Assembly (NCBI GenBank): GCA_049840735.1
Contig: JASGJN010000003.1
Location: 1-44,240, forward strand
DNA: 44,240 nucleotides
Reading direction: 5' to 3'
DNA from: Anaeromyxobacter sp.
GTDB lineage: Bacteria; Myxococcota; Myxococcia; Myxococcales; Anaeromyxobacteraceae
Shown: in pieces, positions 13,601-22,600 of the stretch
How the letters are laid out: each line of letters opens with the position of its first letter
How positions within the stretch are numbered: position 1 is the first letter of the stretch
Position numbers: made by a program

Positions 13601-16600
13601 AAGGGACGCACGCCGAAAGCTCCACAAGGACCGCCTGGCCTTCGACTCCGCGCCCGCTCGCGGGCGCTACGCTCAGGCTGACCGGGGCCGCTGGCGCGAA
13701 GGGACGCACGCCGAAAGCTCCACGAGGACCGCCTGGCCTTCGACTCCGCCGCCACTGCCCGGCGGCTACGGCCAGGCCGAACGGTGCCAGGGGTCGGTCG
13801 GCCGAAGCGGAGCCGCGGTCTTCCCCGGCGAGGGCCGGGCCGGCGCGCGCCCGCCCGGACGGTCAGGCCGGCACGTCGACGGCCAGATCCCCCGCGTCCA
13901 CCGGCAGCACCGCCGCGTTCTCCTCGGCCCAGCGCGCCGCCGCGCCGTTGAGCGGGCTCTTCACGTTGTAGCTCTGGAACGCGATCATCTCGGCGATGCG
14001 CCCGATGACCGTGGCCAGCGACTGCCCCGCGCTCCAGTGGTCGCCGATGCAGATCGCGTGCGGCGCGATGTTGGGGTGGAAGACCGGCGTGAGCATCCGG
14101 CACTGCGGCGCCTGCCGCGGGTACCCCAGCGTCAGGAAGATCTCCACCACGTGGGCGTCCTTCTGCACCACCGCCCCGTCCTGCATCACCAGCCCGCGCA
14201 CGCCCAGCTCGACCCGGTAGCGCTCCGGCGGCTCGCCCACCGCCTCGAGCAGCTTGAAGCGCGGGTGACCCTCCAGCCACCGCCGGATCATCTCCTCGTC
14301 GGCCCGGAGCCGCCTCAGCCGCACGCTCATCTCGCCTCCTCGTCCCGGAGGTCCAGCGGCGCCCCGCAGGGCGAGCCGGCCTCCCGGAGCAGCGCGGCCA
14401 CGTCGGCCGCCGCGATCGCGAACCCCATCCCCTCGGCCACGCCCCGCCCCGCCGTCCAGGTGTTGAGCCCCACCAGCCGGCCCTGGACGTCGTAGAGGCC
14501 GCCGCCGCTGTTGCCCGGGTTGATGGAGGCCTGGACCTGCAGGATGCGCGCCCCCCGCCCCTGGCGGACCGCCGAGAGCACACCCGTGGTGAACGAGGCC
14601 TCGTAGCCCAGCGGGTTGCCCACCGCGAAGACCCCCTCGCCCACGTGCGGCAGGCCCGCAGCCCGCACGGGCACCGGCTCCGGGGCGCCCCTCGCCTCCA
14701 CCCGCACCACCGCCACGTCCAGCCCCTCCGGCCCCATCCAGCAGACCTTGGCCGGCCGCTGCTCCACGTCCTGCAGCGTGGCCGCGGTCAGCGCGCGGCC
14801 ATCGCCGCAGCTGACCACGTGCCGGTTGGTGAGCGCGACGTAGGCGCCCGCCTCGCGCCGGACCACCACCGCCGAGCCCAGCCCCGCCTCGTCGCTCCCC
14901 TGGCACCTCAGCACCACGTTGGCCCGCAGGGCGCGCCGCACGTGCGGCTCGGCGTCCTCCACGCCGCCCACCGCGCGCGAGGACCAGATCCCCGCCGCCG
15001 CCGGGCCCGGGCTGTCCTCGCCGGCGGAAGGGCGGCCCAGCACGTAGGCCACGCCCCCCACCCAGCCCACCAGCGCGATGCTGCCCAGCACCACCCCCGC
15101 CACCGCCAGCCCCGTGCCCTTCAGGTCGGCGCGCACCTGCAGCGCCCGGAGCGCCAGGATCCCGCAGCCGATGGCCACCGGCCCGAGCACGAAGCCCACC
15201 AGCGGCAGCGCCAGCGCCCCCAGCACCAGGGCGGCCACCGCCAGGTGGCTGGTGCGCGGCGGGCGCTCCGGCGCGGCGCCCGGCACCACGGCGCTGGCCA
15301 CCTCCTCGGGCGTGATGCGCAGCGGCGGGTCGAAGGGCGCCATGCGCGATCCCCTACCCCACCGCCGAGACGATCAGCGCCGCGAGCGTGGTGGCGCTGC
15401 CCGCCACCAGCCCCAGGACCGCCAGCACGCGCCAGGTGGCCTGCCACCGGCGGACCGCCTTCCAACGCACCGCCAGCCAGAATCCCGCCCACCACCAGCG
15501 CCAGCGGGGCCGTGACCGGGAAGACCCCGGCCGCGAAGAGCGCCAGCGCCGCCGCGCGCCCCTCCGGCGCGGCCGGCCGCCCCACCACCGGGGCCGCGTC
15601 CGGCGCCGCCGAGGTGAAGGTGAGGCCGCAGTGGCGGCAGCGGATGGCCGCCACCTTGATGCGCTGGCGGCACATCGGGCAGGTCTTCTCCTCCTGCCCC
15701 CAGTAGCTGGCCGCCGTGGCCGGCTGCTCCTTCAGCGTCTCCGGCGTGAGGGCGCAGCCGTAGGCCGCGCAGCCGCCGTTCTCCGACCAGCACTCGCCGT
15801 GATAGGGCGCCTGGCACTCCGGGCAGCGGCCCACCTCGTCGAGCTGCGCGATGGCCGTCTGGCAGATGGCGCAGGTGGCCCCCACGTCCGGTCCCTGGGC
15901 CGCGCCGACCTCGAGCGGGGACGCCATCACGCCTCCTTCACGGTGAAGGAGAGGATGGTCTTGCCGATCCGGATCTCGGTCACCGGCCTCCAGCCGCTTG
16001 CGGCGCACCGCCCGGCCGTTCACCACCGTGCGGCCAGCGCCGCCCTTGTCCTCCAGCTCGTACCCCTCGCCCACCACGTGGATGAGCGCGTGGACCGGCT
16101 CCACCTCGGCGTCCTTGAAGAGGTAGATGTCGGCCTTGGGGCTGCTGCCGATGGTGGTGGGGTTCTTGAAGAGCACGAACTCCTTCCCCGCCAGCGGCCC
16201 GGCCTGCATCTTGAGCCAGGCGTCGCGGGCCAGCAGCTCGACCACGCCGATCATCAGGCCCGTGGTGAGGCCGATGACGGTGAAGCCCACCGCGCGGCTC
16301 AGGTCGCCGCCGTGCAGGCCGTTCGCGTTCACCAGCCGGTCGATCGGGGTCGAACAGCAGGCCGCCCAGCAGCGCGCCCACCACCCCGCCCAGCAGCCCG
16401 TTCAGCACCATGCGGCGGGAGCGCAGCGCCAGCCCCTGCCCGACGCCCATGCCGCAGCCGACCGCCGCCCAGGCGGTGGCGCGCGCCGTCATCTGGGCCA
16501 GGAAGCCGGCCACCGTGAGCCCCTCGTCGCCGCGGAAGCCCTCCACCACCTTCTGGCCGAGCCCGTAGAGCAGCTCGGCCAGCATGTCGCCCACCAGCCC

Positions 16601-19600: not shown

Positions 19601-22600
19601 GAGGCCGAACCGGGCGAAGCGCTCGTCGGCCGCGCCGCTCACCGGCGCGCCCCGGCGGTGATCTCCGGCTGCAGCCGCAGCACGTCGCCGGGCTGGACGC
19701 CGGCCTCCTTCAGCGACTGGTGATCGAGCAGCTGGCGGCCGCTCGCCTTGTGGTGGAACTTGTAGCTCATGAGCTGGCCGTCGGGGCTCTGCCGCGGCAG
19801 CTTCATCTTCTCCACCAGCACCACCAGCACCCGGTTGACTGGGGCCTCGTCCGGGACCTCCACGTCCTGCCGCTTGCTGCCGGTGGCGTCCCAGACCTGC
19901 ACGGTGATCGTTCCCATCGTGTTCCCCCTCAGCCGACCGCGTTGATCAGGACCCGGATCACCAGCACCGCCGACAGGATGCCGTTCACCACCAGCGCGAT
20001 GGTGGGCAGCAGCGCCCCGGTGCCCCGGGCCCGGTCCCGGTCGATGATCGAGGTCGCGAGGCCGCCCAGGGCCAGCCCGATGAGCAGGAACCCCAGCACC
20101 ATCAGGCCGAACTTGCCCTCGCCCTGGACCATCGTGCCGCCGAAGACCATGACCAGGGTCCAGAGGACCGCGAGGCCCAGGCCGACCAGGCCCCGCGGCA
20201 GCGCGCCGTCGCTGGGCCTCGGCCCGCCGTCGGCCACGCAGCCCGGGCAGAGCAGCAGCGCCCCGACGGCGAAGGTGCAGAGCTCGCAGCAGAGCCGGCC
20301 GCAGTGACCGCACCGCGAGTGGACCAGGTTCTGCGCGTGGAAGGAGCAGCTGGGCGTGGTCATGTGCGCGCTCGCGGCAGGAGATCAGCGGTTGAACGTG
20401 GAGAACAGGCTCAGGGCGCCGATCAGCAGGCCGAAGATGGAGACCGTCAGCGCGGCGTCGGCGTAGCCCTTGCCGCCCAGCGCCGGGTCCGCCTGGATGC
20501 GCCGCCGCGCCTCGAGCGCCTTGGCGATGGCGATGGGCTCCAGGATCAGGGTCAGCCAGCAGCCGAAGCCGAAGAGCCCGCCCAGCGCGAACCAGAGGGC
20601 CTGCTTGGCCTCGGGCAGGTCGACGGTGGGCACCACGCGGATGTTGGCGATCGCCAGCTGCTTGCACGAGGCGCAGTAGCCGGTGCCGCCCACGACCACC
20701 AGGCAGCTGTCGCAGAAGCCCTCGGCGCATCCGGCGCAGGCGCCGGCCGAGGCCGTCCCCGCATGCTTGTGGCAGTCCATCGATCTCCCCCGCGGTCGTG
20801 GCTTGCCGAGCGAGTAAGCCCGAATGGGGCAACACGAAGCAAGCCTCACGACCACGGGGCGCGTGCGACACGACGACTCACGGGAGAACCCGCGGTCAAG
20901 TGATCGCGATCACGCAGCGTGACAGGCGCCGGACACCTACACCGTGCCGACCCGCGGTGGGCTACGCCGCGTCGCGCTCGGCAGCGGCCGCGTTGGCGGC
21001 GGCCGGCGCGGGCGCCAGGTGGGCGCGCCGGGCGCGGCGCCAGGCGATGACGCGGTCGCGCAGCGCCAGGCAGGGCTGCTCCACCAGCGCGTAGCTGACC
21101 ATCGCCATGCCCAGGGCGCCCAGCACGTTCATGGGGAAGGTGCCGGACCAGGTGCCCCAGCTCTCACCGGCGAAGAACGGCTGCTGCCACAGGTAGAGGC
21201 TGTAGGACAGGACGCCGAGGCGGGCCACCGGCTTCCAGTTGAGGAAGCGCCCCGCCGCGGTCTCGGGCCGCTCCACCGCCCAGGCCAGCAGCGCCATCAC
21301 CGCCAGCGCCTCCAGGCTCCACCCCACCGGCCAGGCCCAGGCGCCCTCGTGGCGGATGGTGAGCAGCGGCGAGCCGATCACCAGCGTGAAGGCGGCGACG
21401 GCCGCGGTCAGGTTGTGCGTGAGGAAGCGGAGGAACGCCGTCCCCCGCAGCTGCTGGCGGGACAGCGCCAGCCAGCAGCCCGCCATCAGCGCGTCGATGC
21501 GGGTGTGCCACATCGAGGCGAGGTCGGCGTCGGGATCGTAGTGGCCGTGGACCACGCGGATCACCGGCGAGGCCAGCAGCAGGACCAGCGACGCCCAGCG
21601 CGACCAGCGCCCGGCCAGCACCACCGTCACCGGCCAGAGCAGGTAGAACTGCTCCTCCACCGAGAGCGACCAGGAGTGGCCCAGCCACCAGCCGGAGGGG
21701 AGGTAGTCGGTGAGGAAGAGCAGCGCGTTGCGGTAGCCGTGCTCCGGCACCGGCGCCGACACCAGCCACATCACCGCCACGTAGGCCCAGAACGGCGGCA
21801 GGATCCGGAAGGCGCGCCGGAGGTAGAACTCGGTCAGGCTGATGCGGCCCGCCTGCTCGCGCTCGCGCTGGAGCAGCGAGGTGATGAGGAAGCCGCTGAT
21901 GCCGAAGAAGACCCCCACGCCCAGCGGGCCCAGGTTCCGGAGCAGCCGCACCCAGATCAGGTCCTGGTGGTCCAGGCCGTACGCGAAGAACGCGTGGGAG
22001 ACCAGCACGCCCGCGATGGAGAACGCGCGCAGGCCGTCGAGGGATGGGATCCGGGAATCGCTGCGCTTCACGCCGGGGAGCTCCTGCCGCGGGGCCCCGC
22101 AGACCCGCGAGCGGCGCAGCCTGTCACACCGCAGCGGCCCCGACAAGCCGGCCCCCGGCCGCGCTTGACGCCGGCCCGCCGCGCAACTATTGCTATGACA
22201 AATGTTGCCGCAGCAAGAATACGTGGGGCTGCTCATCGCGGTCGCCCGGCGGCGGATCAAGCAGGCGGTGCTGGCCCGCGCCGCGGGCCACCGGCTCTCG
22301 CCGCAGCAGTTCTGGCTGCTGGTGGGGCTGCTGGAGCGGCCCGGCGCCTCGCAGCGCGAGCTGGCCGGGGCGCTCCACCTCGACGCCCCCACCGCCTCCC
22401 GCGTGGTGGCCGCGCTGGTGCGCCGGCGGCTGGTGCGCGTCGAGGCCGACCCGGCGGACCGCCGCCGGGTGCGCCTCCACCTCACGCCGGCCGGCGCGCA
22501 GCTGGCCGGCCGGCTGGCCGTGGCCGCCGCAGAGATCCGCGAGACCGTCGTCGAGGGGCTCTCCGGCGCCGAGCTGGAGGCGCTCCGCCGGTCCCTGCGC

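Follow-up and report, generated by a model that had tools for sequence, protein, structure and literature searches.

We identified a nine-gene operon in Anaeromyxobacter sp. that joins a ubiquitin-like protein (Ubl), an E1, an E2, a RING-type E3 and a JAB peptidase with several membrane proteins, and that is a myxobacterial addition to the bacterial RING tri-ligase operons, a system type already known. All genes are co-directional on the minus strand at 13863..20780 of contig JASGJN010000003.1, within the 44,240-nt stretch analyzed here (the window), and are spaced by −4 to +21 nt. We consider it somewhat better than an even bet that the locus encodes a complete three-enzyme Ubl cascade at the cytoplasmic face of the inner membrane with a role in envelope surveillance. 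The survey's finding had described eight genes; place and direction held, but the count did not, and the gene it lacked, a Prok-RING_1 E3 at 15927 to 15354, is the most informative of all. The plus-strand call g00301 probably overlies this RING gene. In order of transcription, with Pfam matches in brackets, the genes are:

20385..20780, minus strand: g1, N-terminal Cys/His zinc finger and DUF4190/CD225-like membrane anchor, 131 aa (DUF4190 5.8e-05, below the cut-off; CD225 0.0027)
19929..20363, minus strand: g2, zinc finger and three hydrophobic segments, 144 aa (from orthologues and hydropathy)
19639..19917, minus strand: Ubl, YukD-like ubiquitin-like protein, 92 aa (YukD 5.7e-12)
18461..19642, minus strand: E1, ThiF adenylation domain and C-terminal zinc-bearing ubiquitin-fold (E2-binding) domain, 393 aa (ThiF 2.7e-51)
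17271..18464, minus strand: JAB/JAMM metallopeptidase, 397 aa, with hydrophobic segments 249–278 and 366–394 by hydropathy (JAB 2.7e-12)
15927..17263, minus strand: TM-FHA, six-helix membrane protein with a C-terminal degenerate FHA domain (FHA 3.5e-9 on the middle piece)
15354..15927, minus strand: RING E3, Prok-RING_1 (C4HC3), zinc ribbon of NZF-like fold and membrane anchor (PF14446 3.5e-13)
14327..15343, minus strand: DUF4190 membrane anchor and trypsin-like serine protease, 338 aa (Trypsin_2 9.1e-26, DUF4190 5.2e-10)
13863..14330, minus strand: E2 of UBC type with HPN motif and Cys94, 155 aa (UQ_con 3.3e-10)

The Pfam matches reported earlier for Ubl, E1, JAB, protease and E2 were reproduced. 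Hydropathy places membrane segments in every gene product except Ubl, E1 and E2, giving six membrane proteins. Genes at the place of g1 in L010, L018, L090–L093 and L108 share 35–48% identity with it, and g2, which gave no match in a Pfam search, has orthologues at 31–38% in L010, L090–L093 and L108. In the sequence itself, the TM-FHA stop and the RING start overlap by 1 nt.

The RING gene matches PF14446 at 49.7 bits (cut-off 29.1) and is the only Prok-RING_1 copy in the whole genome (G000). Its eight ligands are present in 76–79 of 79 relatives, and orthologues are intact at 187–199 aa. Fold comparison returned mostly RING domains, among them that of RNF13, with PHD and C1 domains in the same lists and low scores throughout (best Z 5.6; no Foldseek match at E ≤ 0.001); the zinc ribbon matches NZF weakly (Z 3.3, 31 residues). 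With this gene the Ubl-E1-E2-E3-JAB cascade is complete. A predicted E2-RING complex scored 0.63 against 0.01 for the best of three controls. Among solved complexes 116 of 157 reach the mark that it passed, among mismatched pairs 2 of 215; still, the pass may mirror likeness to solved complexes, because E2-RING is a textbook pair. Contact agreement between runs was at least 95% and partner pLDDT at least 87. On the E2 side the interface comprises residues 3–14, 69–74 and 97–104, which we take to be helix 1 together with loops L4/L7, where a RING canonically binds. The model thus supports binding of E2 through its usual RING-binding face and is consistent with covalent Ubl transfer to targets.

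Two genes are interrupted in this assembly: TM-FHA by frame breaks near 16346 and 15978, and the RING gene by one near 15481. An out-of-frame FHA C-terminus had been reported; the frame is indeed broken, but the FHA domain remains readable in the window (E 3.5e-9). Three breaks in 6.9 kb compare with about 1.2 expected, and most of the operon is gone from another genome of the genus, so that this copy might be decaying, with the relatives alone functional and one of the three frameshifts removing FHA. We regard such decay as unlikely: the chance of at least three breaks is 0.12, every catalytic residue is kept, and the RING and FHA pieces retain 55–75% identity. Moreover, 14 of 63 control orthologues elsewhere in the assembly also change frame (0.17 per kb), including a 1394-aa gene directly behind rpoB. 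Since the breaks fit the assembly's own indel rate, they have an ordinary explanation and are not the weakness they had been taken for.

A second suspected weakness, the Ubl end ...ITAGARR in place of GG, dissolved on comparison with relatives. The motif EITAG is present in 51 of 52 Ubls from the loci and in all 120 database matches listed, followed by variable tails; 6 of the 52 and 7 of the 120 stop at the Gly. Because EITAG is kept, the tail varies and some Ubls end at the Gly, we read the tag as a pro-Ubl for the JAB, with a putative mature end at Gly89 and a three-residue pro-tail. The JAB retains E74, H138, H140, S148 and D151 in 54 of 54 relatives.

E1 Cys184, conserved in 49 of 49 relatives, is the likely catalytic cysteine. 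The predicted E1 structure (pLDDT 87.8) aligns over residues 3–376 to UBA3 (Z 28.5, 317 aligned, rmsd 7.5) and over residues 9–376 to SAE2 (Z 27.2, 313 aligned, rmsd 3.8), whereas alignments to ThiF/MoeB cover residues 1–255 only. The matches to UBA3, SAE2 and UBA1 run through their C-terminal E2-binding domain; on this model, E1 carries at its C-terminus a ubiquitin-fold domain (UFD) of eukaryote type. In E2, H85 and C94 occur in 85 of 85 relatives and HPN is invariant in a 63-row alignment; all 60 PDB matches listed, of 78, were eukaryotic UBCs. The E1 model and E2 profile strengthen the survey's reading of a membrane-tethered, eukaryote-type ubiquitination-like operon.

That the Ubl is not lastingly conjugated, but helps a membrane complex to assemble non-covalently (as YukD/EsaB do in type VII secretion) or carries sulfur or a small molecule, seems highly improbable. 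It would suit the YukD-like fold, the reported unconjugated state of B. subtilis YukD (accessible text of PMC1779556) and the best whole-domain Z-scores of E1, which are to MoeB/ThiF. It fits poorly with an invariant terminal Gly before a tail free to vary, with strict conservation of E1 Cys, E2 HPN/Cys, RING and JAB, and with recurrent neighbors that include no secretion ATPase or sulfur enzyme. Type VII secretion itself was rejected: neither the scanned window genes nor the recurrent neighbors include FtsK-like ATPase or ESAT-6 genes.

Burroughs, Iyer and Aravind (2011, Mol Biosyst 7:2261) reportedly described bacterial Prok-RING family 1 'tri-ligase' operons, in which a YukD-like Ubl is said to have a conserved terminal Gly and E1 a catalytic Cys and UFD. 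The Anaeromyxobacter operon has the same component set and Pfam family (PF14446): Prok-RING_1, a YukD-like Ubl with invariant G89, E1 with Cys184 and UFD, a UBC-type E2 with HPN and Cys, and a JAB with its active-site residues kept. In the accessible text of PMC4197634, PMC10557695 and PMC7159879, such operons are predictions credited to Burroughs 2011; that of PMC4197634 names Planctomycetota and Acidobacteriota, the principal host phyla in our search, and does not list Myxococcota, the present host phylum. The rarity and novelty implied by the survey thus do not stand, the type being widespread in Planctomycetota and already cited in print as predicted (accessible text of PMC4197634 and PMC10557695). 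The window, four loci of another myxobacterial genus (g23), L010 and L018 form a subtype (split support 98, quick tree) that differs from the tri-ligase operons, as known via citing papers, by an upstream g1 (and g2, except in L018), a longer TM-FHA, an unfused protease and the lack of a DUF2752 gene. Our literature search for experimental study of such a RING operon found none, only computer predictions.

Accessible accounts of the characterized bacterial Ubl pathways (CBASS Cap2, Bil, Bub) include no RING E3; RING-type bacterial E3s appear as rare predictions in that of PMC10557695, and one survey places the complete toolkit in no analyzed bacterium (accessible text of PMC4327156). One demonstrated parallel is archaeal: the Caldiarchaeum subterraneum operon Ub-E1-E2-srfp(RING)-Rpn11, biochemically demonstrated, has a JAMM-trimmed pro-ubiquitin, a single-domain E1 with C-terminal ubiquitin-like domain, a UBC E2 and a RING E3 (PMC5654768, accessible text). 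That five-gene operon encodes true ubiquitin with GG, whereas here the YukD-like tag ends in AG and a membrane-anchored E3 and DUB, FHA and a serine protease are added. BilABCD resembles our operon in a single conserved Gly with a non-conserved tail removed by a JAMM DUB and in an E1-E2 thioester relay, but as described in the accessible text of PMC10557695 it consists of E1, E2, Ubl and DUB only, its E1 having an inactive adenylation domain and a helical CYS domain and no UFD; our operon has a single ThiF domain with UFD, a RING E3 and six membrane proteins. Assignment to BilABCD (type II) failed on E1, whose single adenylation domain starts at residue 1 and is followed by a C-terminal domain (compared with the same text), and by profiles, which gave only a weak BilD match (7e-8) on the ThiF domain, with RING and membrane genes present. 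The earlier distinction from Bil is thus upheld, as are the weak PADLOC hits (E1-E2/BilD on E1), joined by one weak JAB match (0.0034) and trypsin-domain matches. Bub (6E/DUF6527) and type II CBASS (Cap2/Cap3) are also bacterial Ubl conjugation systems with E1, E2 and peptidase; in the accessible text of PMC11601596, Bub forms Tyr/Ser oxyesters and has DUF6527, and CBASS an E1-E2 fusion and CD-NTase, neither seen in our operon. Bub, with E1/E2 lacking catalytic Cys, was rejected on two invariant cysteines and a Pfam scan of the operon that found no DUF6527, and CBASS on separate E1 and E2 and the lack of a cyclase among scanned operon and window genes.

Across relatives, 50 of the 51 loci that have all six core genes keep the order Ubl-E1-JAB-FHA-RING-(trypsin)-E2; only L042, which has no protease, departs from it. 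The relatives found are for the most part full operons from Planctomycetota and Riflebacteria, rather than a core form in Acidobacteriota as proposed; in 10 loci, each with 9 kb or more upstream of E2, a search of the locus vicinity found Ubl, E1 or both not within reach. Absence from genus and family holds for E2, not found in the 23 genus and 66 family genomes, and intact Ubl occurs in 0 of 91 other Anaeromyxobacteraceae genomes, but G811, of the same genus, bears a deletion scar of the operon. E2 in 4 of 32 g23 genomes was confirmed; RING and Ubl occur in the same four and in none of the other 28. Identities to these loci were as reported for Ubl (82–84%), E1 (68–70%) and E2 (67–70%), whereas JAB reached 43–55% in longer alignments, not 68–70%. 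In the protein database, E2 orthologues at 67–70% bear the names of Myxococcus stipitatus DSM 14675 and Pyxidicoccus parkwayensis (P0052, P0046), which makes a culturable host plausible.

The patchy distribution and the deletion scar also fit a role in defence. The main rival to an envelope role, possible though we would not expect it, is that the same chemistry serves anti-phage or inter-organism defence, with variable zinc-finger membrane proteins sensing an invader, the cascade tagging phage or host proteins and the protease as effector. Such a role would suit the sporadic occurrence (Ubl in none of the 91 family genomes and 4 of 32 in g23, a close E2 in 17 of the 401 genomes of a Planctomycetota sample), three flanking contexts among the four g23 loci, the G811 scar, and a cassette varying across loci from one to four RING genes plus Zn-ribbon/DUF4190/TM2/Yip1 genes; CBASS and Bil act against phage (PMC11601596), and a predicted conflict system includes a different RING tri-ligase (PMC7159879), both per the accessible text. 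Against it, flanks are not defence islands: PADLOC matched 14 of 131 flanking proteins at 1e-10 (sampled from 212 cluster representatives at 60 loci, flanks alone without background control), nearly all through generic domains (kinase, ABC ATPase, cyclase, desulfurase, SNF2). The operon's window neighbors are metabolic and transport genes, Ubl relatives were not found on viral contigs nor E2 on 72,556 plasmids, 13 planctomycete loci share one neighboring gene, and clusters in the tree follow lineage.

The membrane proteins bear on the envelope role that we prefer. TM-FHA orthologues are intact at 447–452 aa. The FHA motifs G-R and S-x-x-H serve phosphothreonine binding; compared with GarA, G-R reads G-S, invariantly, and S-R reads E-P, which does not fit a phosphothreonine-binding FHA. 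Protease residues H175, D209 and S279 are kept in 74 of 75 relatives. Across 49 protease genes, basic residues prevail in the loop within the anchor (mean 2.4 K/R, 0.4 D/E) and acidic ones in the part that follows it (2.6 D/E), a pattern that, with hydropathy, places the protease outside, so that it would face the periplasm. The protease is non-obligatory, since L042 and L088 are complete without it. In 60 of 79 related protease genes, RING shares the open frame, with the protease domain across the anchor, as in PA-TM-RING proteins. MARCH/Doa10 carry a C4HC3 RING ahead of membrane helices, and PA-TM-RING proteins (RNF13) are also membrane RING E3s. The likeness to these eukaryotic enzymes, a cytoplasmic RING on a membrane anchor, is an analogy: homology is seen in the RING fold only, the tag is something other than ubiquitin, and a 20S proteasome was not found. 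All five genomes examined have one HslV-sized gene of the proteasome family and no alpha/beta 20S pair.

We propose a four-step scheme, in which the chemistry up to E2 charging and E2-RING binding is very probable and the envelope-surveillance relay an even call; catalytic residues are all conserved across phyla. The membrane-anchored JAB would cut pro-Ubl after Gly89, as its conservation suggests; JAMM trimming is demonstrated in the Bil (PMC10557695) and archaeal (PMC5654768) analogues, per their accessible text. E1 would adenylate Gly89, form a thioester on Cys184 and hand the tag through its ubiquitin-fold domain to E2 Cys94, as the residues and domains present suggest. The membrane-anchored RING, predicted to bind E2, may then steer transfer to lysines of nearby membrane proteins, the likeliest targets being the operon's own zinc-finger/DUF4190 proteins and FHA protein. 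Finally, the tag would be read rather than routed to a 20S proteasome, with NZF-like zinc ribbons and the phospho-blind FHA as candidate readers, and JAB would reverse the tagging. The trypsin-like protease across the membrane, RING-fused in most relatives, could link periplasmic events to tagging inside, so that the relay would sense damaged or foreign envelope proteins and remodel or turn over membrane proteins.

A bolder, doubtful reading sees here a functioning bacterial equivalent of eukaryotic membrane-protein ubiquitination (ERAD/MARCH-like), in which RING and periplasm-facing protease, frequently joined in a single chain, turn envelope events into Ubl tags on membrane proteins, and NZF-like zinc fingers and the phospho-blind FHA read the tags. 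If true, this would be the first demonstrated bacterial RING-dependent E1-E2-E3 cascade with dedicated tag readers. This locus contributes a compact version with one RING from myxobacteria and supplies residues to probe: Ubl G89, E1 C184, E2 C94 and the RING-E2 interface. A full E1-E2-RING cascade in bacteria, together with what it modifies, would inform the question of how eukaryotic membrane-protein ubiquitination arose.

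Translation of window positions 13200-21200 in the three minus frames, combined with Pfam searches, yielded nine tightly packed genes with intergenic gaps of -4 to +21 nt. The survey's finding had been an eight-gene operon; the operon stands, and its count rises to nine with a RING gene that had been overlooked (Prok-RING_1, PF14446; 49.7 bits against a cut-off of 29.1).

Genes of the operon, as defined by translation and Pfam
20780-20385, minus strand: g1, first gene
20363-19929, minus strand: g2, second gene
19917-19639, minus strand: Ubl
19642-18461, minus strand: E1
18464-17271, minus strand: JAB
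17263-15927, minus strand: polytopic membrane protein with FHA (TM-FHA)
15927-15354, minus strand: RING protein
15343-14327, minus strand: DUF4190-trypsin
14330-13863, minus strand: E2

The GC content of the operon (0.75) is close to that of the genome (0.73). None of the 22 window ORFs scanned is an integrase or defence gene; their products are proteins of metabolism, transport and the cell surface. NCBIfam gave no match above its cut-off for any gene.

An E2 search of GTDB contigs returned 93 relatives. The best 80 of these share 53-64% identity and stem mostly from Planctomycetota and Riflebacteria, with single records each from Acidobacteriota, Verrucomicrobia, Sumerlaeota and Victivallales. 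Among the 84 loci examined (the best 80 plus four myxobacterial ones; L094-L096 were left out), 51 contain Ubl, E1, JAB, FHA, RING and E2, and 50 of these 51 keep the window's gene order. Many of the remaining loci are cut by contig ends, and in 10 loci with at least 9 kb upstream, Ubl, E1 or both were absent within reach. RING matches were present in 81/87 loci. The operon is real and conserved, and represents a new myxobacterial member of the predicted bacterial RING-E3 ubiquitin-like class.

Its presence is sporadic: among 400 other Myxococcota genomes, 5 have a close E2, as do 17 in a sample of 401 from the phylum to which one planctomycete locus belongs. Another 27 genomes of the Planctomycetota sample gave weaker E2 matches (mostly 29-45%). 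Two more distant myxococcotal loci, L095:10834-13500 (genome G003; E1-Ubl-E2-JAB) and L096 (genome G014), have another gene order; like the weaker matches, they probably represent other operon types. As the survey had reported, the operon occurs in four of 32 genomes of one other myxobacterial genus (g23), where Prok-RING_1, Ubl and E2 all fall in the same four; these loci lie in three different flanking contexts. Carriage by phage or plasmid was rejected, as searches of viral contigs for Ubl relatives and of plasmids for E2 both came back negative. When we looked for an empty site, the two flanking genes searched were widely separated or lay on separate contigs in those genus genomes holding both. 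In a quick tree of Ubl, E1 and E2 (50 rows, SH-aLRT only), the window and the four g23 loci form one group (support 94), and all five, together with L010 and L018, are split from the rest (support 98). Since the L018 E1 is broken and its long branch unreliable, we do not infer which lineage was the donor or which way any transfer went.

A whole Ubl was found in none of the 91 other genomes of the window's family. The same-genus genome G811 (90% complete, 600 contigs) carries a remnant (L108:1447-2473, on G811:C9) in which g1 and g2 are intact and Ubl residues 1-31 are fused in frame with the C-terminal ~25 residues of E2; the operon E1 was not found in this genome. The remnant is either the scar of a deletion or a collapsed stretch of assembly, and whichever the cause, it shows g1 to E2 to be a single unit. 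Such a scar, the patchy presence and the variable cassettes favour a defence role for the same operon, the main rival to the envelope role proposed below. Against it, PADLOC, run without control genes, matched no more than 14 of the 131 flanking proteins sampled, nearly all through generic domains, and the planctomycete loci share stable neighbours; we regard defence as a possible but rather doubtful role.

Compared with intact orthologues (447-452 aa), the TM-FHA gene changes frame near 16346. Orthologue matches end near 15976 in this gene and near 15481 in the RING gene (187-199 aa orthologues), and both tails resume in another frame. For a control rate, we took 89 genes spanning 200 kb in a complete genome of the same genus and searched the window's genome with them; 14 of the 63 usable orthologues were frame-changed (0.17 per kb), one of them a 1394-aa gene immediately behind rpoB, so split or missed gene calls are to be expected often in this genome. 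At the control rate, 1.2 breaks are expected in the operon, with a probability of 0.12 for at least three. Assembly indels are the likelier cause, and the operon is probably intact.

Elsewhere, contig C25 carries a second copy (98.5%) of window 38.9-40.6 kb, and beyond ~40 kb the GC content drops to 0.67-0.70, with thiolase and malate synthase genes in fragments; 38900-44240 may be a contig end that is chimeric or of low quality. Weak tblastn hits at 40033-40329, outside the operon, mark a second zinc ribbon like that of the RING protein. Downstream of E2, 13537-13764 holds two 98-nt tandem copies and a partial third, REP-like; we rejected these repeats as a system component because they belong to a genome-wide interspersed family (550 BLAST matches).

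The Ubl motif EITAG is found in 51/52 locus Ubls, the exception being EIVAG, followed by a tail, in the distant L095. It is also present in all 120 listed database hits, whose conservation is partly selected, as they are the best-scoring of 3852. The tail beyond this motif ranges from 0 to >100 residues, and Ubl stops at the Gly in 6/52 locus copies and 7/120 listed hits. Against the PDB, the Ubl profile gave marginal matches only, to polyubiquitin. In one planctomycete clade (three loci counted), Ubl is fused to a zinc-finger/DUF4190 membrane protein, where a cut after the Gly would be needed, recalling ubiquitin fusion precursors.

Ubl-DUF4190 fusions
L027:2061-2744
L057:2854
L060:2698
L076:2256 (shorter)

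The pattern of a conserved Gly and a tail is also that of type II BilA, whose DUB removes the tail (PMC10557695), and in archaea Rpn11 trims pro-ubiquitin (PMC5654768). At L010:4653 and L061:3678, Ubl and E1 share one open frame, which is real or an assembly error. The JAB active site is kept in 54/54 relatives, and E1 C184 and the zinc ligands in 49/49. The E1 profile ranks UBA7/UBA1/UBA3 above ThiF/MoeB. Alignment of the E1 model (pLDDT 87.8) reaches the C-termini of UBA3, SAE2 and UBA1; with ThiF/MoeB it covers only residues 1-255, yet gives the highest Z.

In E2, HPN and C94 are invariant among relatives, and the 60 listed of 78 PDB hits are eukaryotic UBCs. Cys77, His91 and His98 are likewise invariant (85/85 relatives), and HPN and the Cys lie one residue closer together than they do in aligned eukaryotic UBCs. 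Many relatives carry C-terminal TPR or zinc-ribbon extensions (database entries P0038, P0041 and P0043; many loci within L011-L089) that the window E2 lacks. The genome has no PF14446 match besides the RING gene. This gene additionally encodes a UPF0547 zinc ribbon, and its C4HC3 ligands are kept in 76-79 of 79 relatives. Fold searches weakly favour RINGs: the top seven Foldseek rows are RINGs and the first PHD-titled entry ranks 27th, which makes a PHD finger the less favoured reading. The modelled E2-RING complex scored 0.63 (best control 0.01) and passed a mark reached by 116/157 solved complexes and 2/215 mismatched pairs; at least 95% of contacts agree between runs, with partner pLDDT of at least 87. 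The modelled interface comprises E2 residues 3-14, 69-74 and 97-104, which we take to be the canonical RING-binding surface. As E2-RING is a textbook pair, this pass shows likeness rather than binding. Over 31 residues, the second finger of the RING protein can be aligned with the zinc finger by which Npl4 binds ubiquitin (Z 3.3), a weak lead towards a tag reader.

All six products other than Ubl, E1 and E2 have hydrophobic segments. Averaged over 49 protease genes, the DUF4190 anchor appears to run from a hairpin of ~39 residues through a short, basic loop into a helix of ~28 residues, with acidic residues after it. By the positive-inside rule, these charges would place the N-terminal zinc fingers on the cytoplasmic side and the protease outside. 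The trypsin active site is kept in 74/75 relatives; a cysteine pair occurs in the five myxobacterial proteases and is absent from other relatives. RING and protease share one open frame in 60 of 79 protease genes; 4 of the others are truncated, and the 15 that lack an in-frame RING include those of L010, L018 and the four g23 loci. The FHA domain has lost the phosphothreonine-binding Arg and Ser but retains its own invariant surface; for the membrane part of this protein, the ESM Atlas returned nothing usable. Relatives add 1-4 RING genes and zinc-ribbon proteins that carry DUF4190, TM2 or Yip1. The window lacks the DUF2752 gene that is found in 49 loci, mostly right after E2. An extra zinc-finger and trypsin gene lies directly upstream of g1 at L093:14420-16246, in one myxobacterial locus.

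In the proposed mechanism, JAB would trim pro-Ubl, and E1 would charge Ubl and hand it over to E2, which the membrane RING would position for the tagging of membrane proteins close by. The tag may be read by zinc ribbons or FHA and removed by JAB, while the periplasm-facing protease would tie tagging to envelope state. We consider this conjugation chemistry highly probable, and envelope surveillance as its role an evenly balanced proposition. A 20S proteasome is an unlikely reader, because 5/5 genomes had one HslV-sized family match.

The operon lacks the features tested for membership in Bil, Bub or CBASS, which bears out the survey's separation from Bil; those of type VII secretion were absent from the window genes scanned and from the recurrent neighbours. 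Excerpts of earlier papers mention sporadic, uncharacterised operons related to the archaeal Ub-E1-E2-RING-JAB cluster in Actinobacteria, Planctomycetes and Acidobacteria (PMC4197634, citing Burroughs 2011), rare RING-type E3s in bacterial operons (PMC10557695), another tri-ligase system (PMC7159879), and no complete toolkit in the bacteria analysed by PMC4327156. A full-text literature search, with most subscription papers outside its reach, found no experimental study of such operons, and the RING-E3 ubiquitin-like class apparently stands as a prediction still awaiting experiment. With the class known on paper, a first experimental test would matter, and the compact myxobacterial version offers clear residues for it.
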